Notes under the pieces: model-generated
Told to the model about the DNA's origin: nothing
Database searches by the model: none
Seen by the model: the letters and a program-made list of their open reading frames with translations, nothing else
In this document: one piece after another, positions 4,199 through 22,926 of the stretch
Layout: the number at the start of each line of letters is the position of its first letter
Position numbering within the stretch: position 1 is the first letter of the stretch
Origin: Poseidonia sp.
Lineage (GTDB): Archaea; Thermoplasmatota; Poseidoniia; Poseidoniales; Poseidoniaceae
DNA length: 28,323 nucleotides
NCBI GenBank assembly: GCA_034402455.1
Contig: DASCRS010000036.1
Location: 1 to 28,323 of the forward strand
Reading direction: 5' to 3'
Program-made: the position numbers and the translations under genes

Positions 4199-4801
4199 AT
4201 GTTTACCGGAATCGTTCAGGGTAAAGGGACCCTTCTCTCACGCCAAAAAGGTGAACGTGTTGAGACGCTCACCGTTGAATTACCCAATGCGGCTGGACTT
4301 GAGAGAGGAGCAAGTGTAGCCATCAACGGTGTTTGCTTGACAGCAACTAATATTGACGGCCAAAAAGTCGCCTTTGATGTCATTCCCGAAACACTGGAGC
4401 GAACCACCTTGGGGGCGACTACTATTGGCGAATCCGTCAATGTCGAACGTTCGCTCAAGATGGGAGATGAACTCGGAGGGCATTTGCTTTCAGGGCACAT
4501 CATGGCGATGGTGAACGTTGTTCGCCTCATTCCACAAGGAGAAGGAATTGACCTCGCAATGAAAGCGCCTCAGCACCTCATGAAATACATTCACGAAAAA
4601 GGATATATCGGACTAGATGGAACCTCCCTCACTATTGGTGAGGTTAAGGACGATGTATTCAATATCCATCTTATTCCCGAAACGCTGAGTTTGACCACCT
4701 TTGGAGAGACTTCAGTCGGAGACTTGGTTAATGTTGAAATTGATTCCATGACGCAAACGGTAGTGTCAACCGTAGAGAGAATGATGAAACAGGAGAACTG
4801 A
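4199..4801 (+). CDS. ribE: Riboflavin synthase, bacterial/eukaryotic alpha-chain type
   Basis: N-terminal MFTGIV and two lumazine-binding repeats (GASVAINGVCLT, GYIGLDGTSLT). GGAGG lies 8 nt before the ATG at 4199. Confidence 0.95.
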   Translation: MFTGIVQGKGTLLSRQKGERVETLTVELPNAAGLERGASVAINGVCLTATNIDGQKVAFDVIPETLERTTLGATTIGESVNVERSLKMGDELGGHLLSGHIMAMVNVVRLIPQGEGIDLAMKAPQHLMKYIHEKGYIGLDGTSLTIGEVKDDVFNIHLIPETLSLTTFGETSVGDLVNVEIDSMTQTVVSTVERMMKQEN

Positions 4802-4812
4802 GGTGGCAATAC

Positions 4813-5196
4813 ATGAGCAAAAACATCGGCATAGTCTGTGGGTCCTTCCATCGTGAAGAAGTAGAGAGGATGCTTGGATGGGCGAGTGAAGAAGCTGCTG
4901 AGAACAACATGAAGATCACTCAAGTTGTATGGGTTCCCGGTTCAATGGAAGTCCCACTTGCACTTGACCGCATCCTCGAATCTTGCGATGCAGCCGCCTG
5001 TTTAGGAATCATTGAGAAAGGTGAAACACAACACGGGCTCGCTATGGGGCAAGCTGTCATCAAAACCATCCTTGAACTACAGTTAAAACACAACAAACCC
5101 ATTGGTTTGGGAATCATCGGACCAGGTGCTGAACCTCATCACATTGAACCACGCCTTGAACCTCATGCAAGAGCAGCAGTGTTGGCTCTTATTTGA
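4813..5196 (+). CDS. ribH: 6,7-dimethyl-8-ribityllumazine synthase
   Basis: VPGSMEVP, CLGIIEKGETQH and KPIGLGIIGPG. GAGGTGG ribosome-binding site at 4800-4806. Confidence 0.93.
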   Translation: MSKNIGIVCGSFHREEVERMLGWASEEAAENNMKITQVVWVPGSMEVPLALDRILESCDAAACLGIIEKGETQHGLAMGQAVIKTILELQLKHNKPIGLGIIGPGAEPHHIEPRLEPHARAAVLALI

Positions 5197-5210
5197 GCGA
5201 TGAAATATTT

Positions 5211-5870
5211 CTAAGGGCTTCGTCTTCGGATTTCATCTGAGAAGAAATTCATGACTTTGCTTTCAACACGCTGAATTTGCGCTGAAAGTGTAGATTTGGA
5301 AACACCCAAAAGTTCAGCAAGTGTGGTGAGGGTGATCTTTCTTTGAGGGTCGTAAAATCCCTCTCTAATCGCAATATCATAGACTTGACGTTGTCGTTCT
5401 GTCAACAACCGGCTCGAGGTGCTTCGAGTGGACACTAATCGGTGTGGAATATTTTCGTGCTTAAATTCTTCAATGAGTTTTCTCATTTTGTGTCTATCGC
5501 ATTCAATCACCCAATCAACCCATCCATCACGAATTTCAAATGGGGTTCTTGGAATGACGTGCAATTGCAACAAAGGTTTGAGGAAACCCCCTCCTCCAGC
5601 ATTAATAGTTACATGATAGCGATTGCTTTCAACCATTTCAAAGTCTGCTACTCCAAGGTGAGTCATGATGGTGGTCGACAAATCTTCGGTTGAAGAAATG
5701 ATACCTGATCCTTGACCTTTGGCCAAGGCCATGTGTTCGTCTATTCGAATAATAGAAGAAGGATGGCTTCTGGAAACATCGCCAGCCCAATGTCCGTTGG
5801 GTAAACGTACTTCAATTCTCATTTGGTGCGTTGTTTTGTTCTCTTCTCGTGGTTGTGACTTTATCGCCAT
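5211..5870 (-). CDS. HTH_10 (bacterio-opsin activator Bat / DmsR / NarO-type HTH) transcriptional regulator
   Basis: C-terminal LTERQRQVYDIAIREGFYDPQRKITLTTLAELLGVSKSTLSAQIQRVESKV is the HTH_10 signature. Confidence 0.9.
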   Translation of the reverse strand: MAIKSQPREENKTTHQMRIEVRLPNGHWAGDVSRSHPSSIIRIDEHMALAKGQGSGIISSTEDLSTTIMTHLGVADFEMVESNRYHVTINAGGGGFLKPLLQLHVIPRTPFEIRDGWVDWVIECDRHKMRKLIEEFKHENIPHRLVSTRSTSSRLLTERQRQVYDIAIREGFYDPQRKITLTTLAELLGVSKSTLSAQIQRVESKVMNFFSDEIRRRSP

Positions 5871-5933
5871 GCTAAATCTCCCAAAACCCTCAACTCAATA
5901 CAGTGGAGTGACAATTGTTCAAAAACAGTCGTC

Positions 5934-5975
5934 ATAAATAGCATTTGGGCGAACATCTCTTTACGAACATGTTCG
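5934..5975 (-). promoter_or_regulatory. Promoter of the HTH_10 gene: TATA-like element plus two CGAACAT boxes, one a perfect palindrome
   Basis: CGAACATCT at 5950-5958 and the 14-bp palindrome ACGAACATGTTCGT at 5963-5976. The minus strand reads CTATTTAT at 5941-5934. Confidence 0.75.
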
Positions 5976-5984
5976 TGCTGCTCA

Positions 5985-6599
5985 TTAGTCATCCATTGAT
6001 GAGTTCATTTGTTCCATGGTGATGATGAAAATAGCCGCAAAACCTACTCCCAAAAGGATGGTTGCGATCTCTCCTGAAGTGAATCCATCCGGTCCATCAA
6101 CAATAACCGCCTTTTTTGATGTGGTTATGCTTGTCGTGTCTTTCGTCCAGTGGTCACCACTTCCAGCTATACCATCGCCATTCACAGCATTACCGTATGT
6201 TGTGAAGGTTACAACAGTACCTTTGGAAGGTGCGTTCCATTGAACCGTCCAAGTCCGCTCATCGTTTCCTTCAGAGGTATGTGTTGCCTCTCCATCAAGT
6301 ATTTGCGTGAATATGTCCATTGAACCAAGGGTTCCAGTTGAAGCCCGAAGATTGAATCCTCCAGTGTTCAATCCGCTCGATTCTGGACCAGTGAGATTCA
6401 CATAAACAGTGTATGATTCACCGTGAGTCCAATTGAGGGGAACGCCTTCCACTGTCAGAGCAGCCTCATCTGAAATAGCGCCATCTCCATGACATGTACA
6501 TCCTGAATTAACACCATTTATTCCACTACTATAGCCGTTTGATAGGGGTGCTATGAATATCAATAGAAATGCGCAACTTACTCCAATGAGGTACCTCAT
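5985..6599 (-). CDS. Secreted, C-terminally membrane-anchored choice-of-anchor V / Reeler-like protein with a CxCH motif
   Basis: Signal peptide, SGCTCHG, GGFNL, THT, WTVQWNAP, GNAVNGDG and a C-terminal TM helix. Clearly paralogous to the Cox1 N-terminal domain. Confidence 0.8.
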   Translation of the reverse strand: MRYLIGVSCAFLLIFIAPLSNGYSSGINGVNSGCTCHGDGAISDEAALTVEGVPLNWTHGESYTVYVNLTGPESSGLNTGGFNLRASTGTLGSMDIFTQILDGEATHTSEGNDERTWTVQWNAPSKGTVVTFTTYGNAVNGDGIAGSGDHWTKDTTSITTSKKAVIVDGPDGFTSGEIATILLGVGFAAIFIITMEQMNSSMDD

Positions 6600-6636
6600 G
6601 GTGGTGCCTTAACCTTCTATATCACAAAGGTTAGAA

Positions 6637-6656
6637 CGAACATGTAAGCCCAACAT
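6637..6656 (-). promoter_or_regulatory. CGAACATGT-N7-ACAT box upstream of the CxCH protein
   Basis: CGAACATGT at 6637-6645, 38 bp from the ATG at 6599. Second ACAT at 6653-6656. Confidence 0.75.
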
Positions 6657-6668
6657 CTCAGATGCCTT

Positions 6669-7226
6669 TTATCGCAAAAATGGGTATTGCTCAACAATTC
6701 GAATACGACTCCACCACGAACCGAGCCCCCATGTGTCTCCACAGCGCATGTTCGCCATGCCAAGGCAGAGGATGGCATAGATTAGGTGATGATCGAAAAA
6801 AGGATTGTGTTCCTGTGGTATCGCAGATAACCAAATCATGAACAACATGAATGCACCAGAATAACCGCCAATCTGTGTACCCATTCCTGTGATGAATGCT
6901 AAGCCTACCATAAGTAGGCCAATCATGAAAAGCCATTCAACAGTAACACTGGTAGAAAGGCTTTGGAACCAATCTGCAAAAGGCCCTTGAGTGCTGTATT
7001 TGAGAAAACCTTGGGTTGGGTGACCACCGTTCACCCAGGCCTCCTCGCATCCAAATTTAGCTGATCCACCAACATTGCATGTAGAATCCCCTAGGCCAAA
7101 CGTTCGGTCCAAAAATGGCCATAAAAATACACAGCCCATTGCAATTCGAATCAGTGACCAATATCGCTCTTGAAGGAAATTAAACATGGTTGTTTCCTGT
7201 TCCGATTCTGCTTGAATTGGCGACAT
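6669..7226 (-). CDS. DoxX / DoxD-like membrane protein
   Basis: LIRIAMGCVFLWPFLDRTFGLG, WVNGGHPTQGFL, EWLFMIGLLMVGLA, HNPFFDHH and GDTWGLG. Start at 7226 has GGAG 7 nt upstream. Alternative start at 7187. Confidence 0.8.
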   Translation of the reverse strand: MSPIQAESEQETTMFNFLQERYWSLIRIAMGCVFLWPFLDRTFGLGDSTCNVGGSAKFGCEEAWVNGGHPTQGFLKYSTQGPFADWFQSLSTSVTVEWLFMIGLLMVGLAFITGMGTQIGGYSGAFMLFMIWLSAIPQEHNPFFDHHLIYAILCLGMANMRCGDTWGLGSWWSRIRIVEQYPFLR

Positions 7227-7275
7227 TAGGCATCTCCATATGGCGCATATGGAGGATATGTAGAGTATCCTACGC

Positions 7276-7295
7276 CGAACATGTCCCACTTACAT
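7276..7295 (-). promoter_or_regulatory. CGAACATGT-N7-ACAT box upstream of the DoxX gene
   Basis: CGAACATGTCCCACTTACA matches the 14675 site at 18 of 19 positions. It overlaps only a spurious ORF extension. Confidence 0.75.
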
Positions 7296-7311
7296 CAGTT
7301 TCGTAGACATT

Positions 7312-7842
7312 CTAACTACCCTCTGACATATTCCCCGCAGTTGCACCTGCCTTGGGTTGAACAGAAAAAACACCGCTCTCAGTATTGGAGGTTTTTCCAC
7401 AAAAAATCGCACAGTCAACAATCACTGAACCAGCACCAGGGATGTCAATTTGACACATTCCAGTACTCGAAAAGGCATACTCTCCCGGTGCGGGTGCGGT
7501 AAAGACCACACTGCTAGGGTGAGTCAAATCAAATGAATATGAGAGATTCAAATCAGGTACAGTGAGTGAATCAGCGATGAAGTGCTGTTCGTCGTATTTC
7601 CTAAAATGGAGACGTACACATTCATCTTCCTCAAATTCAATTGATGCGGTTTCAAACGTCATGTCGTAATTGACACAACCGTCATCAATCATCGTTTGAT
7701 CTTTGCACTCCTCCAAGAAGGAGCCCACCTCTTCATCACAAATGCTGGTTGACTCAGTGAACATCAGATTCGATGAAAATGATATCAGAACCATAATGGC
7801 ACAAATCAAATGCCCTTTGGCAATTTTCCAATCATTCTCCAT
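7312..7842 (-). CDS. Membrane-anchored cupredoxin-like protein with a degenerate copper site
   Basis: N-terminal hydrophobic helix, then SLTVPDLNLSYSF..VVFTAPAPGEYAFSSTGMC, a cupredoxin-type core lacking the usual first Cys, His and Met. Start overlaps the nirK stop (7842, or 7848). Confidence 0.65.
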   Translation of the reverse strand: MENDWKIAKGHLICAIMVLISFSSNLMFTESTSICDEEVGSFLEECKDQTMIDDGCVNYDMTFETASIEFEEDECVRLHFRKYDEQHFIADSLTVPDLNLSYSFDLTHPSSVVFTAPAPGEYAFSSTGMCQIDIPGAGSVIVDCAIFCGKTSNTESGVFSVQPKAGATAGNMSEGS

Positions 7843-9253
7843 CTTCATCGTAAACGGTGGTGTTTTCCGCACCAGTCACAGAAATAATGCCTATGGCTCC
7901 TTTGTGGAAGGCACGTGTAAGGGCGTGGTCAACCAAGATGTAGTTCGCAGGAACTTCAAAGACAAGGTCAACAATAACAGCTCCACCTGGGGCAACTATA
8001 ACGGTTTGAACGCTTTCCAATGGAGCACTTTCGGTGCTTGCTAGATTGTAGGCTCGGTCGAAAATCTCACCAATGACGTGGAATGATGAAATGGTATTTG
8101 GACCTCCAACTCCGAAATAAATCCTCATTGATTCTCCGACATTTGCTTTGATGGTATCATCTCCAGTGAAGGTTGCAAATTTGCCATTGAACACGACGTA
8201 GGTTGGGCGTTCGTCAAAGAGCGCATCAACATCCATTTCTTGATGACCTTCGGTGCCAGGGCGCCATTTTGTGTACAAATCGCCCTGCATGACGTAAATT
8301 TCTTTGTCGACTTCCGGCAGTGGAACTTCGGGTTCAATGTAGATCATTCCGTACATGCCTTTGCTGATGTGAGTTGGGATGTCAGGTGTCGCGCAGTGGT
8401 ACACATAGAGTCCAGAATGCATGGCAAGGAAGGAGAATGATGTCGATTCTCCTGGAGCGGTCGTCGTTGCTTCAGCTCCGCCTCCTTGTCCAGTTACAGC
8501 ATGGAAATCCACGTTGTGATGCATCATGCTTTCAGCACGATTGCTGAAATGAACAATTACAGTATCGTTAATTCGTGCTCGGAACATTGGCCCTGGTACG
8601 GTTGCGTTGTACGTCCAATATGTGAAGGTCGTACCAGGTTCAAGCTCTGCAGTGACCTCAACAGCCTCAAGATAGATGTGAACCGTGGTTGATGTGTTGC
8701 GCCCTGTTGGTCCAGGAATATCGTAAGGGTCCTTGGCGATATTGTCAACATCGACGGTCAATGCTGGGCCGATGTTTTCAATTAGCGTTGTACTTGACTG
8801 CCCAGAACCAACAATGAGCGTTCCGACCATTCCACCAGCACGGTGCCCTGCAATGCTACAAAAGTATGCAAATTGGCCCTGAGTATCAGCAACAAAGGTG
8901 ACAGAATCTTCAGATCCAGATTCAGTCAATTGTTTTGTCGCAACATCATAACCTTCTACGGAAATATCGTGAAGATTCATTTCACCCATTTCCAAGGTTA
9001 TGGTCACACGATCACCGGTTTGTACCGATAGTTCGGGGTTGACCAGGCCGTCGATGGAACCACCAACACCGATGTAGGACATTTCCTTGCCTTTGAGTGT
9101 GAATTCAACGTCATTGTACATGACTACGCATTTACCATCAACCAGCTCTGTATCCTTGCCACAGGTTGTCGTCGTTTCTTCGTCTCCCAAACAGCCAGAG
9201 AACCCAGCAGTTATCATCACAAGTATCATTATCATTACATTTATTTTTCTCAT
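7832..9253 (-). CDS. nirK: Copper-containing nitrite reductase, lipoprotein, with an extra N-terminal type-1 cupredoxin domain
   Basis: HNVDFH, YVYHC..PTH..KGMYG, SSFHVIGEIFD and LVDH give all T1/T2 Cu ligands plus the catalytic Asp and His. The N-domain has LHD..YFCSIAGHRAGGM. Lipobox-like FSGC. GAGGTGG site before the ATG at 9253. Confidence 0.93.
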   Translation of the reverse strand: MRKINVMIMILVMITAGFSGCLGDEETTTTCGKDTELVDGKCVVMYNDVEFTLKGKEMSYIGVGGSIDGLVNPELSVQTGDRVTITLEMGEMNLHDISVEGYDVATKQLTESGSEDSVTFVADTQGQFAYFCSIAGHRAGGMVGTLIVGSGQSSTTLIENIGPALTVDVDNIAKDPYDIPGPTGRNTSTTVHIYLEAVEVTAELEPGTTFTYWTYNATVPGPMFRARINDTVIVHFSNRAESMMHHNVDFHAVTGQGGGAEATTTAPGESTSFSFLAMHSGLYVYHCATPDIPTHISKGMYGMIYIEPEVPLPEVDKEIYVMQGDLYTKWRPGTEGHQEMDVDALFDERPTYVVFNGKFATFTGDDTIKANVGESMRIYFGVGGPNTISSFHVIGEIFDRAYNLASTESAPLESVQTVIVAPGGAVIVDLVFEVPANYILVDHALTRAFHKGAIGIISVTGAENTTVYDEDGE

Positions 9254-9297
9254 CGTAATACCACCTCTAGTGGTTGTTTCGTGGTCTGTGTTGGGTA

Positions 9298-9324
9298 TTA
9301 TAGCCCCGGCCACGAACATATTAG
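9298..9324 (-). promoter_or_regulatory. nirK promoter: CGAACATATTAG box plus TATA-like CTATAA
   Basis: Box at 9313-9324. Minus-strand CTATAA at 9303-9298, the same box-to-TATA spacing as at cox3 and the CBS gene. Confidence 0.7.
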
Positions 9325-9342
9325 GCGGAGGTGTACGATTCC

Positions 9343-11514
9343 TCACTCGCCCTCTTGGGCGAACGGGTGACCAATAGAATGGTCAAAATTATGAGGTGGT
9401 GGAGGGGATGAAACTGTCCATTCAAGGGTTGACCCATTCCATGGGTTTGGCCCTGCGATCTCACCGTGTTTCATACTGCGCCAGAAGTTGTAAAAGAACA
9501 ACAATTGCCCAGCAAAGACCACAAAACCACCAATGGTAGCAATAAGATGAGCGACTTCCCAGCCAGCTGATTCTTGATAGAAATATATTCTTCGGGGCAT
9601 GTCAGTCAGACCAAACAAGGGAATCCATGTGAGGTTAATTCCAATAAATGTAATCCAGAAATGGTACATTCCCAATTTCTGGTCCATCATTCGACCGAAC
9701 ATCTTCGGGTACCAATAGTAAATTCCACCCAAAGTCATGACTGCAACGGCACCCAGCGTATAGTGGAAATGCGCAACTAGATAATAGGAGCCTCTCAAAT
9801 TGACATCCATGGCGACACTTGAGAGGTAGACACCAGTAATACCTCCAACAAGGAAAATACCGATGGCTCCGGTCACGAAGACAAGAGGAAGTTTTTTCCA
9901 ATCTGGCTTTGAGCGATAAAAAGTTGCTAGCAAGGAGAGATAAATCAAACCGAATGGAACGCTAACAAGTTCCGTTCCAATGGTTTCAATTTTCCTGAAT
10001 GTAGGATTGATTCCAGTGATGAACATATGGTGTGCCCATACCAATACCGATATGATTGAGGCAACAACCAAGGAATAAATGATGATTTTTCGTCCGTAAA
10101 GTGAACGACGGACCGTGTTGGGGATAATTTCCATGGCCATTCCCAATCCTGGTAGGAGGACAATGTAGACCTCGGGATGTCCGAAGAACCAGAAAATATG
10201 CAACCACCATGTTGTTCCATCGATGCTTGGGTCAAAGAACATGGTTCCAAAGACTCGGTCACCAACAAGCATGAGCACCGCTGCCATGAGTGCAGGGAAC
10301 ACCGCGAGCATCAAAATGACGGTAAAAAGAATGTTCCATGTGAACATGGGCATCTTCATCAATGGCATTCCAGGTGTTTTCATTTGCAAGATTGTGACAA
10401 GGAAATTGACCGTGCTAAACGTGACAGAAAGAATCAACAAAACCAGCCCAGCACCCGCCAGACTTATTCCAGCACCAGGGCTGTATTCTATGCTCGTCAA
10501 GGGGCTATAGAACGTCCAACCAGCATCCGCAGCGCCACCAAAGAAGAATCCACTTGCGGCAACGAGGCCGCCAAAGAGAATCATCCAAAATGACATTGCA
10601 TTGAGACGTGGGAAGGCCATGTCCTTGGCTCCAATTTGAAGAGGGACAATGTAATTTGCAAAAGCAAAGGACATTGGAGATACGGCGAACAGAACCATAA
10701 CGGCACCGTGCATGGTGACCGCTTCGTTGAACAACCCTCCAGTCATGAAATCATTATCCGGTACGATCAATTGGATTCGGATGAGCAAAGAGAGCGCAAG
10801 TCCGATAATGGTGAACAAGAGTGTGGTCCAAAGGTAGAGCATTCCGATGTCTTTGTGATTGGTCGTTGTCAACCAATGCATGACTGTTTTTTTGTCCACT
10901 GCTGGGTTTCTGACCATAAGTACAACCACTGCTGCAACCAAGCCAAGGATGGTCAAAACAATGAGCCACCAAGCAAGATTTGTGAAATCAATGATTGGTC
11001 CGCCGTCGGAATTTAACCCTTCTACCAAGATTTCTTGGCTTGACCAAAGGTCTCCAGCAGAATTCAAACCGTCTCCGTCAACGGCGTTGCCGAATACTTT
11101 GAACGAAATGTCGTCGGTGTCATCAAGAGGAGCATTCCATTGAACTGTCCACTCTCTTACATCGTTCCCCTCAAGTGTATGAGTCATCTCAATTCCCTTA
11201 TTTGGGCCATCAATCACTCGCGTGTGGTTGTCAAGCGAAACAAATTCGCCCCCATCAGCATGCAGGTTGAATCCACCAGAGTTTGCTCCGCTCGCTTCAG
11301 GACCCCCAGTGATGTTGATGGTGAGTTCGTAGCTTTCGGAGCCGTTGTAAACGTCTGGTAATCCTGTGATGGTTACTGTCACATCGTTGGATGCACTTCC
11401 TCCTCCGTGGCATGTACATCCACTGTCGACATTAGCGATTCCGTTGGAAACACCTTCCATCGTAGGGGCAAATGCAATCAAAACAAGAATTGCCATTGCG
11501 AGTAAACGCTTCAT
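9343..11514 (-). CDS. coxA: Heme-copper oxidase subunit I (A1-like) with a fused N-terminal extracellular CxCH domain
   Basis: TMHG, KDMAFPRLN, GWTFYSPL, WFFGHPEVY, WAHH, AHFHY and MPRR. Signal peptide, about 160-aa domain and an extra TM helix precede the core. ATGA overlap with cox2; GGAGGTGG site upstream. Confidence 0.95.
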   Translation of the reverse strand: MKRLLAMAILVLIAFAPTMEGVSNGIANVDSGCTCHGGGSASNDVTVTITGLPDVYNGSESYELTINITGGPEASGANSGGFNLHADGGEFVSLDNHTRVIDGPNKGIEMTHTLEGNDVREWTVQWNAPLDDTDDISFKVFGNAVDGDGLNSAGDLWSSQEILVEGLNSDGGPIIDFTNLAWWLIVLTILGLVAAVVVLMVRNPAVDKKTVMHWLTTTNHKDIGMLYLWTTLLFTIIGLALSLLIRIQLIVPDNDFMTGGLFNEAVTMHGAVMVLFAVSPMSFAFANYIVPLQIGAKDMAFPRLNAMSFWMILFGGLVAASGFFFGGAADAGWTFYSPLTSIEYSPGAGISLAGAGLVLLILSVTFSTVNFLVTILQMKTPGMPLMKMPMFTWNILFTVILMLAVFPALMAAVLMLVGDRVFGTMFFDPSIDGTTWWLHIFWFFGHPEVYIVLLPGLGMAMEIIPNTVRRSLYGRKIIIYSLVVASIISVLVWAHHMFITGINPTFRKIETIGTELVSVPFGLIYLSLLATFYRSKPDWKKLPLVFVTGAIGIFLVGGITGVYLSSVAMDVNLRGSYYLVAHFHYTLGAVAVMTLGGIYYWYPKMFGRMMDQKLGMYHFWITFIGINLTWIPLFGLTDMPRRIYFYQESAGWEVAHLIATIGGFVVFAGQLLFFYNFWRSMKHGEIAGPNPWNGSTLEWTVSSPPPPHNFDHSIGHPFAQEGE

Positions 11515-12245
11515 TGTGCACCACCTCCAGAATACCATTGGTCAAAATCGGATTTCTCCATAACTTCGAGTTCACCAATCATGACGGCATGGTCTGCCCC
11601 ACACAATTCATAACAACGAATTGGATAAGTTCCCGTTTCTTCAGCCAAAATCCATCCTATGTTTGGACGACTTGGGAGTGCATCAACCTTAATTCGGTGT
11701 TCTGGCAAGGCGAAGGAATGAAACACATCTCCGCCAATGACTTCGAACACGACTGGGGTGTCAACCGGGATTCGTAATGGTTCATCGGTGGCACTGGTGT
11801 AATTGATTCCATTGGGGTATTCGTATTCCCAATAATACTGCCATCCCGTGACTTGCACGGTGAACGATTCCTCCTCAAGTTCTGGTGTCTCAAAAAATTT
11901 GATTGAATCGAAAGTAACTGAAGAAAGGACGAGAAGAAATACAGTAATGATTACTGTAAGGCTCCATGAAAGTTTGACATTTCCTCGTTCAATAGGCATT
12001 TGTCCCAAGAAAGGAGCATCCGAAGGTTCGACTTCCACTTCAGTCGTTACCAACCAAAGGAAGAAACCGTAGACAGTAACGGCTACAATACATCCTAATG
12101 TCCAGTAAATCAAGAAGAGGTTGTCGTATACCTTGGCGTGTTCTCCAGTTCCAGGTTCTTGGAACCATTTGATGATTGAGCCAAAGGTCAGCATAAGAAT
12201 AACAATCGAGAAGAAAATGAGTCCAAATGCCCGTTTATTCTGCAT
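11511..12245 (-). CDS. coxB: Heme-copper oxidase subunit II, CuA type, no cytochrome c domain
   Basis: Two TM helices, GWQYYWEYEY, DVFHSF and CYELCGADHAVM. GGAGGT site and ATGA overlap with cox3. Confidence 0.95.
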   Translation of the reverse strand: MQNKRAFGLIFFSIVILMLTFGSIIKWFQEPGTGEHAKVYDNLFLIYWTLGCIVAVTVYGFFLWLVTTEVEVEPSDAPFLGQMPIERGNVKLSWSLTVIITVFLLVLSSVTFDSIKFFETPELEEESFTVQVTGWQYYWEYEYPNGINYTSATDEPLRIPVDTPVVFEVIGGDVFHSFALPEHRIKVDALPSRPNIGWILAEETGTYPIRCYELCGADHAVMIGELEVMEKSDFDQWYSGGGAQ

Positions 12246-13057
12246 CAGATAACCTCCACATATACAATCAAGAACAGCACCATCCAAACCACATCAACAA
12301 AGTGCCAATACCATACAATGGCTTGGAATGAATCCCTTCTTCCGTTGTCATAGTATCCTTTTTTGTGTAAGAAAGCGACCCCCCCTAAGGCAATGATTCC
12401 AACCAATACATGGAGTCCATGCAATCCTGTTAAGGCAAAGAAAGCGGTGCCATAAGGATGGTCTTTCCATGTGAACCCTGTATGCATATATTCATACAAT
12501 TGAATAGCCAAAAAGAGAGCACCAAAAGCGATGGTAATGTACAGATTCTTTCGAGAACGAACCAGTGAACCCCGGTCATGGGCGTGAAGAGAAAGGTGGG
12601 CTATGATTCCCGAAGAAAGCAATAATGCAGTGTTGAACATCACCAGCATCATGTTGTGGTGAATCTCTGCTGGTGGCCATGAAGATGAGGCGATTGCTCC
12701 ATCCCAAGAAACAGTGTGCCATTTCGCCCAAAACCAAAATGCAAAGAATCCCGCAAAAACAATGACTTCTGTGAGGATAATCCATACCATTGCCCACGAA
12801 GCATGGCCCATTTTGTGGGTTGAAATCTCACGAAATTGCCAGAGATCAACATCTTCTCTAACCCAAGAGAATATCGACCACACCAACATTGGAATTGCAA
12901 GGAAAGCGATGGGCCATATGAGTAAAGAAGCAAGTGTTAAGGTTACTGAAAGTGAAAAGATTAGAGGTACCAAACTGGAATGAACTTCTCCAGGTTCTCC
13001 GTGAGCATCCATGTTGATTTTCCAAAGCGATTCATTCGGTAAGTGTTCACCATCCAT
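12245..13057 (-). CDS. coxC: Heme-copper oxidase subunit III
   Basis: LTEVIVFAGFF, WPP, NTALLLSSG, FFALTGLHGLHV and YWHFVDVVW. Start 13057 is supported by promoter geometry. Confidence 0.93.
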   Translation of the reverse strand: MDGEHLPNESLWKINMDAHGEPGEVHSSLVPLIFSLSVTLTLASLLIWPIAFLAIPMLVWSIFSWVREDVDLWQFREISTHKMGHASWAMVWIILTEVIVFAGFFAFWFWAKWHTVSWDGAIASSSWPPAEIHHNMMLVMFNTALLLSSGIIAHLSLHAHDRGSLVRSRKNLYITIAFGALFLAIQLYEYMHTGFTWKDHPYGTAFFALTGLHGLHVLVGIIALGGVAFLHKKGYYDNGRRDSFQAIVWYWHFVDVVWMVLFLIVYVEVI

Positions 13058-13079
13058 GGATATTCCAGGGGAGAGAAGA

Positions 13080-13115
13080 ATATACATTGTAACACGAACA
13101 TGTAGGGGGGACATG
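13080..13115 (-). promoter_or_regulatory. cox operon promoter: CGAACATGT-N7-ACATG box plus TATA-like GTATAT
   Basis: Box at 13095-13103, 38 bp from the ATG at 13057. Second ACATG at 13111-13115. Minus-strand GTATAT at 13085-13080. Confidence 0.75.
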
Positions 13116-13143
13116 CCTTACCAGTGTTGGAGTTCCAAGATTC

Positions 13144-13737
13144 ATGAGGGCTGATACTTCAATTGTACTAAGCCTCTTGATTTTAGGAGCATTTCTTTCG
13201 CTTTCCCCACTAATCTTATTTGGCGACTCAGAGCAATTGAATACGGTCACACGAGACGATTTATCCGTTGAACAAATTTCATCATTAAACAATGGGACCT
13301 TCGCTAAAAGTCTCAAAGATAATGATGCCATCATCATTACATCGGCGATTATTGTCAAAGATTCCTTGTTCATCGCAGGTGAATTTTCTGGAGAAATTAC
13401 CATTGGAAATCAATCCTATCTCAGCCAAGGATCTTCGGATCTAATCATGGCAAGGCTTGCACCAAATGGAACATGGATTTGGGTTGAGGTTCTTGGGGGA
13501 GCTGGTAATGACCGTGACGTAACATTTGAGTACAAAAATGAACAATTATTCGTAAAGGGCTCAATTTTTGGTGAAATCAATACTACATCGGGTTATACGG
13601 TAGGCAGTGGAGAAAAAAATGGCCATGAAAGGATTATTGGAGAAATTTCAGTTGAAAACGGTACCTGGAAGTTGCTTACAGTTGACCCGTTTGGAGACCT
13701 AAGTGCGAACCCCTCTCTATGGTGCGGATGGCGATGA
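13144..13737 (+). CDS. Hypothetical membrane-anchored or secreted beta-rich protein
   Basis: N-terminal TM or signal helix. IAGEFSGEITIG..DLIMARLAPNGTWIWVEVLGGAGND resembles archaeal surface beta-propeller repeats. Confidence 0.7.
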   Translation: MRADTSIVLSLLILGAFLSLSPLILFGDSEQLNTVTRDDLSVEQISSLNNGTFAKSLKDNDAIIITSAIIVKDSLFIAGEFSGEITIGNQSYLSQGSSDLIMARLAPNGTWIWVEVLGGAGNDRDVTFEYKNEQLFVKGSIFGEINTTSGYTVGSGEKNGHERIIGEISVENGTWKLLTVDPFGDLSANPSLWCGWR

Positions 13738-13744
13738 TGGGCCC

Positions 13745-14167
13745 TTAGATGTGATCTAGAAGAGCCTCATTGTGAACGAAAGACCATCCATATGCATGGA
13801 AGTCCTTTTTGTCAATTTCTTCAATTTCGCAGCCAAGATGCGACCAAATCAATTCGATGTCGCCTCTTACTTCCATTCGATAAGAGATAATGTCCATCCA
13901 TTTTTTCTTTTGTGTAGTGTCCATCAGCAATATAACTCCGAGGTCTTCGTTAATCTCTTCAAGGGTTGAATGGATTGTTTTTCCTTTGATTTTCAATCCA
14001 TTCTTTGCTGGATCAACGATGAAATATTCCCAATTATCTTTCTCCAATTTTGTGATGATTGACAACCAAGAGTGGTGGTCAATGTTTGAATCGCCAAGAA
14101 GGGCAATTTGCTTCAAACTACGAGCATATTCAATGATCTCATTCGGAAGAAGGTGTTGGTGGGCCAT
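13745..14167 (-). CDS. Divergent CoA-binding (YccU-like) Rossmann domain protein
   Basis: IALLGDS, FIVDP, KGKTIHSTLEEI, IWSHLG and FVHN follow the YccU pattern loosely. Confidence 0.55.
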   Translation of the reverse strand: MAHQHLLPNEIIEYARSLKQIALLGDSNIDHHSWLSIITKLEKDNWEYFIVDPAKNGLKIKGKTIHSTLEEINEDLGVILLMDTTQKKKWMDIISYRMEVRGDIELIWSHLGCEIEEIDKKDFHAYGWSFVHNEALLDHI

Positions 14168-14217
14168 GAGGAGCGATTCTCTTTAGGAGCCTTGTATTTT
14201 TCACGAATATGTCCGTC

Positions 14218-14637
14218 TTATGGGAAATTTTTGTTTTGATTCATGTGCTCAAGAACCGATTGCAATGTGACCAAGCCCAGAATATTTCCATCTTGAATTA
14301 CTGGCAGGCGCTTTACATTGAATGCAGACATCTGCAAGTAGGCGTCATCAATCGTACACAGAGGCCCAATATGATGCAACGCTCTCAGATTAAATGAATA
14401 CAAGGGTCGTTTCCAAAAAGCCTTGATTTGAACCTCACGTTCTTCTTGTAAACGAAGCATTTCTGTTGAAGTGATTATGCTCCACGGACGATTATCTTGG
14501 TCCAAAATTACAAGAGTGCAAGTTCCAAGCTTGCCGATATAATCAGCGGCATCCAAGAAACATACATCAGATGTGATTAGAGGGGGGGAGCATGACATAA
14601 ACTCCCCAACCGTCAATTTATTGCTCAACCTTGGCAT
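14218..14637 (-). CDS. CBS-pair protein
   Basis: VGEFMS..PP, ..WSIITSTEML and AYLQMSAFNVKRLPVIQDGNILGLVTLQSVL form two CBS motifs. Confidence 0.85.
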   Translation of the reverse strand: MPRLSNKLTVGEFMSCSPPLITSDVCFLDAADYIGKLGTCTLVILDQDNRPWSIITSTEMLRLQEEREVQIKAFWKRPLYSFNLRALHHIGPLCTIDDAYLQMSAFNVKRLPVIQDGNILGLVTLQSVLEHMNQNKNFP

Positions 14638-14659
14638 GGCGTGTGAAATTAAACCTAAG

Positions 14660-14693
14660 ATATAGACTTGAAAGCGAACATGTCCAACTTACA
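14660..14693 (-). promoter_or_regulatory. CBS gene promoter: CGAACATGT-N7-ACA box plus TATA-like CTATAT
   Basis: Box at 14675-14683, 38 bp from the ATG at 14637. Minus-strand CTATAT at 14665-14660. Confidence 0.75.
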
Positions 14694-14799
14694 AGGCTTG
14701 TTCTCTTGAGAATTAGTTCAATTGACATAATTGACAAGCGGAGAGCGACGGGCGAACCTTCAAACACCCCCTCCCCCCAAACTCTAGATGGAGAATAGC

Positions 14800-15729
14800 A
14801 TGTCTAAAGTTCGTAATGTCATCATCATTGGCTCGGGCCCTGCAGGATACACCGCAGGATTGTACACTGGTCGGGCCATGCTTAACCCTCTTATGTTTGC
14901 AGGATATATGTCAGGTGGACAATTGATGCTCACTAGCGACATCGAAAATTTCCCTGGCTATCCTAAGGGCATTGGTGGGCCAGAGATGATGTCGGAACTT
15001 CGGGAACAGGCCGAACGTTTTGGTTTGGAAGTCCAAGATCGCAATGTTGATTCTGTGGACACCTCTCAGCGCCCTTTCAAGGTTGAAGTTGAAGGTGAGA
15101 CATTCCTTACTCACTCTATCATTGTCTGCACTGGAGCAGAATCCATTTGGCTCAATGCTCCAGGTGAAGAGGCACAAAAAGGCCGCGGCATTTCCACTTG
15201 TGCCACCTGCGATGGTGCCTTTTTCAGAGATGAAGAGGTAATGGTGATTGGTGGAGGCGACTCCGCTTGTGAGGAAGCGACCTTCCTTACCCGATTTGCA
15301 AGCAAAGTCACGCTTATTCATCGACGTGATGTATTCAAAGCGTCGACGATTATGTATGATAGGGCAGCAAACCATGAGAAAATTGAGATTCGTACCTTCC
15401 GTCAAGTCAAAGAGTGGCTCTCCGATGAAAAAGGCCTTACGGGGGCTGTTTTGGAGAATACTCAAGATGGTTCAACAGAGACCATTAACGTTACAGGAGC
15501 ATTCATTGCTATTGGTCACAAACCGATTACGGGATTCTTGGCAGGCCAAGTTGAGACCGATGAAGATGGCTATATTGTCAACAAGGAGCACACCATGACT
15601 TCAGTACCTGGTATTTTTGCAGCTGGAGATGTAGTTGATACGCGCTATAAGCAAGCCATTACCGCTGCAGGAATGGGTTGTTCGGCTGCTATTGATGTTG
15701 AAAAATGGCTTGAAGAGAACGTCCATTGA
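14800..15729 (+). CDS. trxB: Thioredoxin-disulfide reductase
   Basis: IIGSGPAGYTA, CATCDG, GGGDSACEEA and GIFAAGDV. Alternative start at 14788. Confidence 0.96.
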   Translation: MSKVRNVIIIGSGPAGYTAGLYTGRAMLNPLMFAGYMSGGQLMLTSDIENFPGYPKGIGGPEMMSELREQAERFGLEVQDRNVDSVDTSQRPFKVEVEGETFLTHSIIVCTGAESIWLNAPGEEAQKGRGISTCATCDGAFFRDEEVMVIGGGDSACEEATFLTRFASKVTLIHRRDVFKASTIMYDRAANHEKIEIRTFRQVKEWLSDEKGLTGAVLENTQDGSTETINVTGAFIAIGHKPITGFLAGQVETDEDGYIVNKEHTMTSVPGIFAAGDVVDTRYKQAITAAGMGCSAAIDVEKWLEENVH

Positions 15730-15768: not shown

Positions 15769-16938
15769 ATGGTTGACCTTGAACGGCATGCTCGCCATCT
15801 TTCCTTACCGAATGTAGGGATTGAAGGTCAGAAGAAGTTGGATGCTGCCCGTGTGTTAATCATCGGTGCAGGGGGTTTGGGCTCCCCTGCGGCACTTTAT
15901 CTCGCCGCCGCGGGAGTTGGACACATTGGTTTGGTAGACAATGACATTGTTGACCTGTCCAATCTTCAGCGTCAAATTTTGCATACGACAAAAAGTGTTG
16001 GAACACCTAAAGTTGAATCAGCAAAGGATAGAATTTTAGCACTTGATTCAGGAATCAAAGTGTCAACTTTCAATACTCGATTTAATCCAAAAAATGCAAT
16101 GGAATTGTTGGAAATGGGTTGGGATTTAGTCATTGACGGAACCGATAACATTCCCACACGATACCTTCTTGATGATGTCTGCAACTTGAATGAAACTCCT
16201 TGGGTCTATGGTTCTGTGTTCCAATTTGAGGGACAAGTAACAGTGTTTGGTTATCAAGGAGGCCCATCTTATCGGGATTTGTTCCCCGAACCTCCACCAT
16301 CCAATGCTGTTCCAAGTTGTGAGGAAGCAGGAGTATTTGGTGTACTTCCTGGTGTTATTGGTTTACTTCAAGCAACTGAAGCCATCAAACTGTTGTTAAG
16401 GCTTGAAGTAGCACTTTCAGGACGTTTGCTCATTTACGATGCAACAAAGATGTCGTTCACCTTTCTGTCCTTTGAAATTGACCCTGAGCGTCCAAAGGTA
16501 ACCGATTTGTCACATTCTGCCCCAATGTTTGATTCTTCCGAATGGTGCTCCCTTGACAACGATTCAAATGATGGTGACATTGAAAAAGAGGAAGCCCACG
16601 ATTCAACAAATATGTTCAATCACATTTCAATTGCTGAAGTTTTGAAACGAAGGTCAAGTGGATGGAAACCTTTCGTCATTGATGTGCGTTCAGACGCCGA
16701 ATATCAAGAAGAGCATGCTTCGTCGTGTGACCTTCAAGTTCCTCACGACCAAGTCGTGGCTGCTATTGATAAAATCCCCCCCAATCAAGATATTCTCGTT
16801 TACTGCCGTAGTGGAATGAGGTCACAACTTGCTGCAATGAGCATGCTGCAAGAGGGGTTGAATTCTGTAAGAGTGTACAATCTTGATGGTGGCATTATTG
16901 CATGGAAGGCTGCTGCACCTGATGAAATCGTCAACTGA
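15769..16938 (+). CDS. moeB: MoeB/MoeZ-type E1-like adenylyltransferase with a C-terminal rhodanese domain
   Basis: IIGAGGLGSP, SNLQRQ, DGTDN, PSCEEAGV and rhodanese YCRSGMRS. Zn-binding CxxC motifs are absent (SYRD), as in actinobacterial MoeZ. Confidence 0.92.
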   Translation: MVDLERHARHLSLPNVGIEGQKKLDAARVLIIGAGGLGSPAALYLAAAGVGHIGLVDNDIVDLSNLQRQILHTTKSVGTPKVESAKDRILALDSGIKVSTFNTRFNPKNAMELLEMGWDLVIDGTDNIPTRYLLDDVCNLNETPWVYGSVFQFEGQVTVFGYQGGPSYRDLFPEPPPSNAVPSCEEAGVFGVLPGVIGLLQATEAIKLLLRLEVALSGRLLIYDATKMSFTFLSFEIDPERPKVTDLSHSAPMFDSSEWCSLDNDSNDGDIEKEEAHDSTNMFNHISIAEVLKRRSSGWKPFVIDVRSDAEYQEEHASSCDLQVPHDQVVAAIDKIPPNQDILVYCRSGMRSQLAAMSMLQEGLNSVRVYNLDGGIIAWKAAAPDEIVN

Positions 16939-20322: not shown

Positions 20323-22926
20323 ATGTCTCAAGGTGATCTGCCAAAAATTTTCGGAGCCGTTTGGGCTCCAAAAGAGGCGTTAAAATTTGTTCAGCCGCTC
20401 CTGCAAGATGCCGCTCGTTCTGAAGTGCTATCTTTTGTTGCCCAACGGCATGACGCCCACCTTTTCCTCGTTGCAAATGTTTGGGACCATATGGTAAGTA
20501 ACGAACCAAAACAGTTTGAAGGACCTTCATGGCACACCTTTTCAGAGCGTTTTTTGAATGGGTTAGAGCGAGGGATGAAAAAGCAAGCAAAAACCACGCT
20601 TAAAGACGAACTTGAGCGTGAAGTTGTTCCCCGTCGAAGCATGGGGCTGATGCTTGAGCGTCGGCGCCAATATTTTCTCATTGACATGCGATTGATGTTG
20701 CGCCGTCTTGCACACTACATGGCTATTACAGTGGCTAATCGCATGGAGTGGCAGCGGTACATGACTAGAACTCGCAACCTCGACACTTCGCTCAAAGAAT
20801 TGTTTACAGAAAGAGTTGAGACTCCAGACGGAGGGACCTTTGGTGGCAAAGGATTCCGTTCCACATGGCAGGAAGGAGTTGTTGCTGTTGCTACTGCTCT
20901 TAACCGTCAACCAGATTCTCCTCGTGATGCTCGCCCAGGAGATGGATATGATGGCGATTTGGTCGCTCCGATGATTCGTGACATCGGTCTTTGCCTCGCA
21001 ATGGGGGATACTGCCCTTGATGTGATGGCGGCAAATCTTGGGAAAGTAGGCTCCAACCAAAATGGAGGGTGGGAAGACGCTGGAGGCCGAGACTTGCATG
21101 TTGGAGCATGGCATGTAGGAGTATTACCTCCTACCGCACCACTTCCAATAGCCAGCGTAACAATGACTGGAATGGCTTTTGCCGCATGGCGCCAAGGGCT
21201 CAATAGATTTCATGTAGCGTGTATTGGAGAGGGGTCATCATCAAGCGGAGAGTTTTGGGAAGCAATGAATCTTGCCGGTGCTCGTGGACTTCCTATCACT
21301 TACATTCTTCAGAATAATCAAATTGCTCTAGACACTCCGCCTGCCAAACAATCAGGTGTTGAATTATGGGCAGATAAAGCGGAAGCGATGGGCTTCCCTT
21401 CTTGGACGATTGATGGCTCTGACCCTGCTGCCTGGCATGCATCAACAGCGGTAGCCCGTGAATATTCACTTGCAGGCGGTGGTCCGACACTTATTCATGT
21501 TGAAACCATGCGTGGATGCGGCCATGCTCATCATCACGATGATTTGTATCTCGGCAATCCAAGCGGGACTTCTCCAGGGTATGTGGACAAAGAATTACTT
21601 TCCTATTGGGAAGCTAAGGACCCCATTCCAAATCATCGTAACCTTCTGTTAGATTTGGGTGTTGATGAGAAGGACCTTGAGGCCATGGAATTGGAAGAAC
21701 AAAAAGGAGTTGAAGAAGCCCGTTCTCTTCTTGATAAAATGGATTGGCCAGAACCTGAAACAGTGACAAAGGGCATCACTTCCATCCACGATGCAGAAAC
21801 TCATGAGAGTCACCTAAATCGTCTTGCAGGAAAGAATCGGACAACTCTGGCAAAGTCCCCACTTGAAATTGGTGAGATTCAACTTGTTTACGCTGAAAAA
21901 GGTGGTTGGACGTATGCTCGAGCCATTCAGCAAGCAATGTCCGATATTGCTACCATATTTGGCAAGGATTGTGTATTCATCGGAGAAGATATGGAAGTTG
22001 CTGGTGCATTTGGAATGAATATGGCTCTAAAAAACGCAGGGCATGAAGATAAGTTAGTTGACATGCCTCTTTGCGAAGCAGTCATCGTCCATACAGGAGT
22101 TGGAGCAGCACTTTCAGGAATGCGGCCAATGGTAGAAATTCAATTTGGAGGTTTTGCTGCTTTGGGCTTTAATGCCCTCATTAACAATGCGTCCATGCTA
22201 CGCTGGCGCTGGGGCGCAGATTGTCCTATGACAGTTCGTATTCCGCTTGGAGCCAGAACCCAATCTGGCCCATTTCATGCAAATATGATCGAATCCTGGT
22301 TCGCCAATGACCCCGGACTAATCGTTATCGCCCCAGGTACTCCTCAAGATGCCTACGATTTACTCGTTGAGGCATCACATCTACCAGACCCTGTATTGAT
22401 GCTTGAGCACATCGGATTGTATGGATTGCGAGGAGGGCTAACCGGATGGGGTATGAACATCAATCAAAATGTGGACACTCAGTCGGTCAAAAAGCGAATT
22501 GAATCAGGAGATGGTTTGACCATTGGTCAAGCAAATATTGTTAGAGGTGGGTGCGATGTTACTCTCGTTACATGGGGTGCTATGGTTCACATTGCATTGC
22601 AAGCAGCCAATATTCTCTCAAAGGAAGGTATTGAAGTTGAAATTGTGGACTTAAGGACACTTATCCCCTTTGACGCAACCACATGTATTGAATCGGTTCA
22701 GAGGACAAATAGATTGGTGATTCTTCAGGAAGGGCAATGGTCAGGTGGGTTGGGCCATACGATACAATCTCGAATTTTGGAAGAGTGCTTCTATGACCTA
22801 GAGTCTGCGCCATGCGTCATCGGTGCCTTGGATACACCTGTGCCGTTTTCGCCACCGTTGGAAAAACATACTGTTCCTTCTCTTGAGCATGTGATTGATG
22901 TGGTTCGTACCTCGTTTCAATCCTAA
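20323..22926 (+). CDS. Fused alpha+beta E1 component of a 2-oxoacid dehydrogenase (TPP-dependent) with an N-terminal extension
   Basis: GEG...NN TPP motif, RGCGH, GEDM, DMPLCE, EIQFGGF, GPFH and DLRTLIPFD. GAGGTGG site upstream. Confidence 0.9.
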   Translation: MSQGDLPKIFGAVWAPKEALKFVQPLLQDAARSEVLSFVAQRHDAHLFLVANVWDHMVSNEPKQFEGPSWHTFSERFLNGLERGMKKQAKTTLKDELEREVVPRRSMGLMLERRRQYFLIDMRLMLRRLAHYMAITVANRMEWQRYMTRTRNLDTSLKELFTERVETPDGGTFGGKGFRSTWQEGVVAVATALNRQPDSPRDARPGDGYDGDLVAPMIRDIGLCLAMGDTALDVMAANLGKVGSNQNGGWEDAGGRDLHVGAWHVGVLPPTAPLPIASVTMTGMAFAAWRQGLNRFHVACIGEGSSSSGEFWEAMNLAGARGLPITYILQNNQIALDTPPAKQSGVELWADKAEAMGFPSWTIDGSDPAAWHASTAVAREYSLAGGGPTLIHVETMRGCGHAHHHDDLYLGNPSGTSPGYVDKELLSYWEAKDPIPNHRNLLLDLGVDEKDLEAMELEEQKGVEEARSLLDKMDWPEPETVTKGITSIHDAETHESHLNRLAGKNRTTLAKSPLEIGEIQLVYAEKGGWTYARAIQQAMSDIATIFGKDCVFIGEDMEVAGAFGMNMALKNAGHEDKLVDMPLCEAVIVHTGVGAALSGMRPMVEIQFGGFAALGFNALINNASMLRWRWGADCPMTVRIPLGARTQSGPFHANMIESWFANDPGLIVIAPGTPQDAYDLLVEASHLPDPVLMLEHIGLYGLRGGLTGWGMNINQNVDTQSVKKRIESGDGLTIGQANIVRGGCDVTLVTWGAMVHIALQAANILSKEGIEVEIVDLRTLIPFDATTCIESVQRTNRLVILQEGQWSGGLGHTIQSRILEECFYDLESAPCVIGALDTPVPFSPPLEKHTVPSLEHVIDVVRTSFQS

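Follow-up and report, generated by a model that had tools for sequence, protein, structure and literature searches.

A 28,323-nucleotide contig assigned to the marine archaeon Poseidonia sp. (GenBank assembly GCA_034402455.1, contig DASCRS010000036.1; this whole stretch is referred to here as the window) carries a gene, nirK, whose predicted product is a complete copper nitrite reductase of the Hyphomicrobium type, in which an additional cupredoxin domain is tethered at the N-terminus. The gene is located in an accessory island which, according to sequence comparisons, is exchanged by gene transfer among lineages of Marine Group II (MGII), archaea that are among the most abundant heterotrophs of the surface ocean and are regarded as strict aerobes. 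The results were best accounted for by a functional, nitric oxide (NO)-forming, three-domain NirK of clade II that is probably lipid-anchored and located on an exchanged low-oxygen island, a reading to which we assign a probability of about 70%. The initial annotation of this DNA described the enzyme and missed that nirK is part of a horizontally shared accessory island, and this context is more interesting than the NirK itself.

Domain structure and N-terminus of NirK

The nirK open reading frame (ORF) was translated without internal stops into a protein of 473 amino acids, and the frame remained open 5' of the ATG as far as a GTG at position 9346. Translation probably starts at the ATG at 9253, because this codon is preceded by GAGGTGG, gives normal n- and h-regions (MRK followed by a hydrophobic core), and coincides with the starts of the homologues. 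The translation comprises a signal peptide with a lipobox (residues 1-21), a Cys31-Cys42 loop, an N-terminal cupredoxin domain (approximately 50-150), and a class II core (approximately 165-470). Pfam analysis revealed the domains Copper-bind (PF00127, residues 106-148), Cu-oxidase_3, and Cu-oxidase_2, while the equivalog family TIGR02376 of NCBIfam was matched at 331.8 bits (cut-off 296.3). The structures 2dv6 (E = 1.2e-123) and 6tfd (E = 3.4e-121) were both aligned over query residues 56-470, collinearly and across all three domains, in agreement with the earlier statement that an N-terminal cupredoxin fusion is known from Hyphomicrobium denitrificans. The ligands of the tethered N-terminal type-1 copper (T1Cu) were found at H95, C132, H137, and M142, those of the core T1Cu at H246, C287, H295, and M300, and those of the type-2 copper (T2Cu) at H251, H286, and H443. 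The catalytic residues D249 and H392 and the gating I394 were also present, with the latter part of this set inside SSFHVIG (residues 389-395), a sequence that conforms to the clade II motif SSFHV/I/P around the catalytic His (Decleyre 2016; PMC4770552). The extra T1Cu domain and the complete core with SSFHVIG, as first described, could thus be read from the translation with every ligand in place.

In an alignment of 57 homologues (26 from MGII, 12 Thermoplasmatota-like sequences from outside MGII, and 19 bacterial), 12 of the 14 copper-ligand and catalytic columns were invariant, a conservation that exceeds chance. The two others, H137 (one Tyr) and M300 (one Leu), were each conserved in 56 of the 57 sequences, both exceptions being found in non-MGII Thermoplasmatota-like proteins and both residues being present in 26/26 MGII sequences. 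What NirK does physiologically in non-denitrifying archaea is debated, and the absence of a partner NO reductase among the genes found could be taken to mean that the enzyme mostly turns over a different substrate or runs in a different direction, candidates being oxygen reduction and the turnover of NO or hydroxylamine, as debated for thaumarchaeal NirK. This is very unlikely, given that the active site has the full canonical complement of residues (Asp, His, Ile, and three His) and that the protein is highly similar, over its full length, to enzymes whose nitrite reductase activity has been measured.

The N-terminus of the protein consists of MRK, a hydrophobic stretch, and F18-S-G-C21, the lipobox-like FSGC of the initial annotation. 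Every full-length MGII NirK homologue (65-98% identical) contained a lipobox of the form [LFIM][AST]GC, with L, I, F, or M at position -3, after a signal peptide that varies freely. The lipobox is followed by a short Cys-bounded loop, C31-GKDTELVDGK-C42, which had also been noticed at the outset and which takes the form C-G-x-x-T-x6-C in the MGII homologues. Cys21, Cys31, and Cys42 were each present in 26/26 sequences of the MGII clade and were missing from the non-MGII archaeal homologues, and the Cys21 column held a Cys in one bacterial row. No twin-arginine motif was found in the signal peptide, and therefore export by the Sec pathway is predicted. The conserved Cys pair probably forms a disulfide hairpin that links the anchor to the cupredoxin domain. 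A general stalk motif of MGII was ruled out for this loop, as NirK was its sole carrier in the genome. In some other MGII lineages, homologues of the protein encoded next to NirK, o186, start with a CG[DE]GT-x6-C hairpin that resembles the one of NirK (L094, 7310-7912; L096, 7281-7868; L098, 890-1489), which suggests an N-terminal module common to the two adjacent proteins.

Lipid modification of NirK at Cys21 is probable, and the competing view, in which the N-terminus remains uncleaved as a signal anchor or is a plain cleaved signal peptide and Cys21 has another purpose, for instance as a third disulfide Cys or a metal-binding one, is rather unlikely. The latter is favored by the plain transmembrane helix of the non-MGII Thermoplasmatota homologues, by the Phe at position -3, which falls outside the strict consensus [LVI][ASTVI][GAS]C, and by the patchy distribution, with gaps, of the lipidation-enzyme family AliA/AliB in Thermoplasmata (PMC12462473). 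On the other hand, the Cys is located just after the h-region, is preceded by small residues at -1 and -2, and is invariant amid a variable signal; other exported proteins of the genome, including a 704-aa ORF on contig C122, bear LAGC or LSGC signals; and all haloarchaeal NirKs bear lipoboxes (PMC8301774).

An accessory island exchanged among MGII lineages

The window is one contig (C36) of a metagenome-assembled genome (MAG) of 1.10 Mb, which consists of 161 contigs and is 55% complete. Its assignment to MGII held, the organism being a Poseidonia (MGIIa): the proteins of a sister species (G023) carry the NCBI name Candidatus Poseidonia. The second large family of MGII is Thalassarchaeaceae (MGIIb). 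An E1 dehydrogenase encoded at 20323-22926 showed 73-88% identity to sequences of its own genus and about 60% to those of the other family, indicating that the backbone of the contig belongs to Poseidonia. The same gene order over both junctions of the island was found in independent contigs (ENA L009, 39 kb, and L104, 63.5 kb; Logan L105, 12.5 kb), while contigs of an unrelated seawater run from 2025 covered positions 4500-5849 and 13369-15108 with 1-4 differences. In addition, near-identical nirK DNA was detected in runs from approximately 10 studies. A chimeric or mis-binned contig around nirK, which had been named as one of two outcomes that would overturn the first description, was ruled out by these independent contigs, the spanned junctions, and the genus-typical flanks. 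An assembly or binning artefact, with foreign DNA joined to a Poseidonia contig, would fit the presence of the gene in only one of 60 genus representatives, the placement of the nearest NirK (85%) in the other family, and the fragmentation of the MAG, but is extremely improbable in view of the shared junctions, the flanking genes, and a GC content that shows no break at the island.

In G023, positions 5229-14744 were replaced by a junction of 27-74 bp between ribH and trxR. The flanks of L009 were 98-99% identical to those of G023, so that the two represent one species, yet the island is present at this site in L009 and is therefore a presence/absence polymorphism within one species. The island was also located at this site in L104 and L105, and its interior was found in 0/59 other species representatives of Poseidonia. 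The site in the closest species is an empty ribH-trxR interval of about 70-80 bp (window 5197-5228 and 14745-14787; contig C97 of G023, about 34075-34149). In more distant Poseidonia species the flanks are 3.5-8 kb apart with other cargo between them, which identifies the ribH-trxR locus as a variable hot spot. The empty site of G023 retains about 20 nt that match the final codons of the HTH_10 regulator gene at the island edge, which favors a deletion in G023, or these bases may instead belong to the ribH 3' region. A classical integrative element was rejected as an explanation, with no tRNA in the window, no convincing direct repeats at the flanks, and no integrase among the scanned island ORFs. 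The features of the island are listed in Table 1. Adjoining it is a MoeB-rhodanese fusion (ThiF and Rhodanese domains; 15769-16938, forward strand), a type of protein typical of MGII (PMC11237513).

Table 1. Location of nirK, its elements, and the other features of the accessory island (positions in the window).
Feature	Position	Strand	Evidence
HTH_10 (Bat/NarO-family) transcription regulator, island edge	5211-5870	-	PF04967, E = 2.9e-16
Accessory island, 9.5 kb, between ribH and trxR	5229-14744	.	Gap in G023; interior in 0/59 other species
o204, free-standing choice-of-anchor V protein with a C-terminal anchor, paralogous to the N-terminal domain of Cox1	5985-6599	-	NF041895, E = 4e-23
o206, membrane protein, no family match	6669-7289	-	Kept in L009 and L104
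o186, membrane-anchored cupredoxin-fold protein (predicted)	7312-7848	-	Alignment, AF2 model
nirK, three-domain copper nitrite reductase, 473 aa	7832-9253	-	Pfam, TIGR02376, PDB matches, ligand columns
Cys31-x10-Cys42 loop (CGKDTELVDGKC)	9128-9163	-	Both Cys in 26/26 of the MGII clade
Sec-type signal peptide ending in lipobox FSGC (Cys21)	9191-9253	-	Translation; Cys kept in MGII homologues
Island promoter box variant, reads ATATGTTCG on gene strand	9313-9321	+	60 nt upstream of nirK ATG
Island-type Cox1, A-family heme-copper oxidase subunit I	9343-11538	-	Family and domain matches
Cox2, intact CuA motif (H...CxExCGxxHxxM)	11511-12287	-	Family match
Cox3	12245-13114	-	Family match
o197, ORF of unassigned family	13144-13737	+	
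o140, ORF of unassigned family	13745-14167	-	
CBS protein	14218-14637	-	

A survey of MGII genomes, as proposed in the initial annotation, detected this nirK in 12 of 400 sampled species of Poseidoniales (about 3%), with carriers in 3/199 Poseidoniaceae and 9/199 Thalassarchaeaceae that occupy 7 of 26 genera besides the one of the window. The proposed phylogeny was calculated against Thermoplasmatota-like and bacterial sequences and revealed that the MGII NirKs form a single clade (support 100), sister to other Thermoplasmatota NirKs, within which Poseidoniaceae and Thalassarchaeaceae are intermixed, in conflict with the family taxonomy. The nearest genome-derived NirK to that of the window is encoded by a Thalassarchaeaceae genome (G058; 85% identity), and the monophyly of the Poseidoniaceae NirKs was rejected by the approximately unbiased test (difference in log-likelihood 233, p = 1e-4). 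The nucleotide identity between the window and L009 was 72-83% in the flanks and island edges versus 92-97% in the segment from nirK to cox1. The same comparison gave 95% protein and 74-81% DNA identity for TrxR, and 98% protein and 93-97% DNA identity for NirK. Because synonymous sites are also kept in the nirK-cox1 core, these values point to recent exchange rather than selection.

Island oxidase, regulation and fate of nitric oxide

The genes upstream of nirK encode an oxidase of the A type, whose subunit I (Cox1) starts with a choice-of-anchor V domain (Reeler-like, CxCH; approximately 10900-11538; NF041895, E = 1e-24). An N-terminal domain of this kind with C-x-C-H was found in MGII Cox1 of both the island and the canonical types. 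The island Cox1 keeps the Tyr of GHPEVY, the D-channel Asp, and the aligned His motifs for heme and CuB, while the Thr and Lys of the K-channel are replaced by Phe and Ile (helix VIII, approximately 9940-9960), so that the island protein reads VPFGLIYL where canonical MGII Cox1 reads [IV]PTGxKIF. This change was present in 8/8 island-type Cox1 sequences from six genera, and both Thr and Lys were kept in 6/6 canonical ones. The identity of the island Cox1 was 64-77% to genes of other MGII genera and only 36-38% to the canonical Cox1 found in Poseidonia. The canonical cox1 of the MAG was split over two contig ends (C54, 40-1005; C88, 3420-3797), and its presence besides the island cox1 means that the MAG has two different A-type oxidases.

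Island-type Cox1 was detected in 20 of the 400 species overall and in 9 of the 12 nirK carriers, an overlap that compares with approximately 0.6 species expected if the two were independent, with the reservation that related genomes are not independent samples. As the oxidase occurs alone in 11 species and nirK alone in three, neither strictly requires the other. The retained Tyr and His motifs ruled out a member of the known NO reductase families for the island Cox1, since the described families, to our knowledge, are without that Tyr. A bolder view, in which the island is a mobile low-oxygen module whose oxidase without a K-channel is the partner of NirK, either as an NO-tolerant oxidase or as an undescribed NO reductase, is speculative and has a low probability. 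If true, it would mean that some MGII take nitrite to N2O without a canonical NO reductase, adding to marine fluxes of N2O or NO.

Further sequence analysis revealed a common box in the island. Five sites in the window (5964, 6637, 7276, 13095, and 14675) carry the exact 9-mer CGAACATGT, which on the gene strand reads ACATGTTCG; all of them are inside the island, and one is a palindrome that matches both strands. Copies with one mismatch were found at 5950, 9313, and 14204. The copy at 9313 is followed by the TATA-like CTATAATA. In five genomes of four other genera (G058, G341, G351, G217, and G251), the exact box was located approximately 60-115 nt upstream of nirK, and in other MGII genera it was also located upstream of cox genes. 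The exact box was absent from 20 kb of the island-free locus of G023. In other genera the HTH_10 regulator is found together with the island oxidase, and it is the candidate protein for binding to the ACATGTTCG box, which is probably its operator.

The start of o186 overlaps the stop of nirK, and a homologue of o186 was located directly downstream of nirK in 11 of 13 compared loci. Its invariant residues include His89, Cys132, and Cys146-x3-Cys150. The AF2 model (mean pLDDT 72) gave weak fold matches (E of about 1e-3), the top ones being the CuA domains of NosZ and Cox2 and the Cu(I) chaperone CupA. With incomplete ligand sets for both T1Cu and CuA, a normal blue-copper or CuA carrier was rejected, and o186 may be a copper-handling accessory protein or, less likely, an electron carrier. 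When the MAG was searched with PF00127 for free cupredoxins, no match was returned, not even to the domain of NirK; with short domains this search was too insensitive to be used.

Regarding the fate of NO, family searches confirmed the earlier statement that no NO reductase is encoded in the window. No NorB-type NO reductase was found in the MAG or in five other nirK-bearing MGII genomes (67-91% complete), where PF00115 finds only Cox1, and no nosZ scored above the cut-off in these five, the MAG of the window not having been searched for nosZ. narG was not found in the MAG and was detected in a single one of the six nirK-bearing genomes, G058. This Thalassarchaeaceae genome encodes a bona fide narG (C5, 29334-32999; 1400 bits, cut-off 1084), is without island-type Cox1, and could reduce nitrate as far as NO. 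The pathway as assembled from these genes ends at NO. In the northern Gulf of Mexico, nirK of an MGII genome (Bin 15) was transcribed in two suboxic samples (Thrash 2017; PMC5596340), and two RNA-type libraries each yielded one contig of 176 nt identical to the nirK of the window, a hint of its expression.

These results bear on the purpose of the enzyme. A real NirK might serve nitrite detoxification, NO signalling, or NO antagonism on particles without energy conservation, in which case there would be little proton-motive gain and NO would diffuse off or be consumed by neighbours. The rarity of nirK, the lack of a NorB-type NO reductase or nosZ in the nirK-bearing genomes searched, the single narG, and the lower nitrite reductase activity and slow product release reported for Hyphomicrobium-type enzymes (PMC7201279) are consistent with such a role, which we regard as improbable, though not strikingly so. 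Against it stand the co-occurrence of nirK with, and often its position beside, an oxidase operon and a regulator under a common box, which gives the cluster the look of a respiratory module, and the expression of an MGII nirK specifically in suboxic samples (PMC5596340).

The island is most likely an inducible low-oxygen respiratory supplement, for which the following mechanism is proposed. NirK would be exported through the Sec pathway, probably cleaved and lipid-modified at Cys21, and tethered to the outside of the cell membrane through a short stalk, which the Cys31-Cys42 loop would stiffen. Copper would be loaded outside the cell, possibly by the translationally coupled, Cys-rich o186. 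MGII are without cytochrome c, and electrons would presumably be delivered by blue-copper carriers from the membrane chain, enter NirK at the tethered or the core T1Cu, and reach the T2Cu by way of the Cys-His bridge, with reduction of nitrite to NO at that site. The tethered T1Cu was initially proposed to be a built-in electron carrier; this role is uncertain, because the distance between the tethered and the core T1Cu in the Hyphomicrobium structures is too great for electrons to be transferred effectively, and a "more complex role" was assigned to the tethering (PMC7201279).

That distance is one of several points that weigh against a functional, lipid-anchored NirK on a low-oxygen island. 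A chain that ends in toxic NO is awkward, with neither a NorB-type NO reductase nor nosZ found in the searches described and narG in one genome. The MAG is only 55% complete, and the RNA evidence consists of two short contigs for which DNA carry-over is possible. To these are added the Phe at -3 of the lipobox and the gaps in AliA/AliB. If this reading is right, approximately 3% of the sampled MGII species carry a transferable nitrite-reducing module, and populations on particles or in oxyclines could be sources of NO and possibly of N2O. The island would also supply testable parts, namely the NirK with its lipobox, its Cys-rich cupredoxin partner, the oxidase that has no K-channel, and an HTH_10 regulator with its box. 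For provisional versions of the standard nirK primers, whose sequences are unreliable, the best sites had 3-8 mismatches (7-8 for the reverse primers), and going by these sequences nirK surveys would probably miss this gene.

Comparison with known nitrite reductases

The novelty of a NirK in MGII was overstated in the initial annotation. Close homologues carry a Cu-NirK annotation in Poseidoniales and Thalassarchaeaceae MAGs at NCBI, and an MGII nirK transcribed in suboxic water was described by Thrash (2017), in a paper that gives no architecture, anchor, island, or oxidase context. Of other MGII genome studies, Rinke (2018) reported only narGHI for the group, and Tully (2019) contains no nirK. 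What is undescribed in the literature searched is a three-domain NirK that combines a predicted Sec lipobox with the Cys loop, as well as the island, its exchange within MGII, and its link to an oxidase without a K-channel.

N-terminal cupredoxin extensions of NirK are widespread (PMC4770552), and the H. denitrificans enzyme (HdNiR; 2dv6, 6tfd) has the same order of three domains, a plastocyanin-like cupredoxin with His-Cys-His-Met ligands, and a clade II SSFHV core. HdNiR starts with a soluble N-terminal peptide whose conserved His27 helps to anchor nitrite (PMC7201279), whereas the MGII NirK has the lipobox and the Cys31-Cys42 loop at this place. The His27 peptide, which characterizes the two solved enzymes and does not define the class, has no counterpart in the MGII protein, in which residues 21-55 contain no His and the alignment begins at residue 56. 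The host also differs, the MGII enzyme belonging to an archaeon without cytochrome c. Closer relatives are the other Thermoplasmatota NirKs, such as that of Euryarchaeota archaeon RBG_16_67_27, which form the sister clade (support 100) and share the three domains at 54-59% identity but, unlike the MGII proteins, have a plain N-terminal transmembrane helix without the lipobox Cys or the Cys loop.

As regards the anchor, the lipobox is the rule among haloarchaeal NirKs (Haloferax, Haloarcula), which are archaeal and extracytoplasmic like the MGII protein (PMC8301774). The haloarchaeal enzymes have two domains, a Tat signal, and full denitrification pathways, while the MGII enzyme has three domains, a predicted Sec signal, and a pathway in which neither NO reductase nor NosZ was found. 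AniA of Neisseria gonorrhoeae (1kbv, 5tb7), the lipoprotein NirK cited at the outset, is of clade II and aligned with the core of the MGII NirK only (E = 1e-95), in keeping with the precedent claimed for it; it differs in having two domains, a location at the bacterial outer membrane, and lipidation by the Lgt pathway. Set beside these systems, the MGII NirK is, for the NirK field, an ordinary member of the Hyphomicrobium type with a clade-specific anchor.

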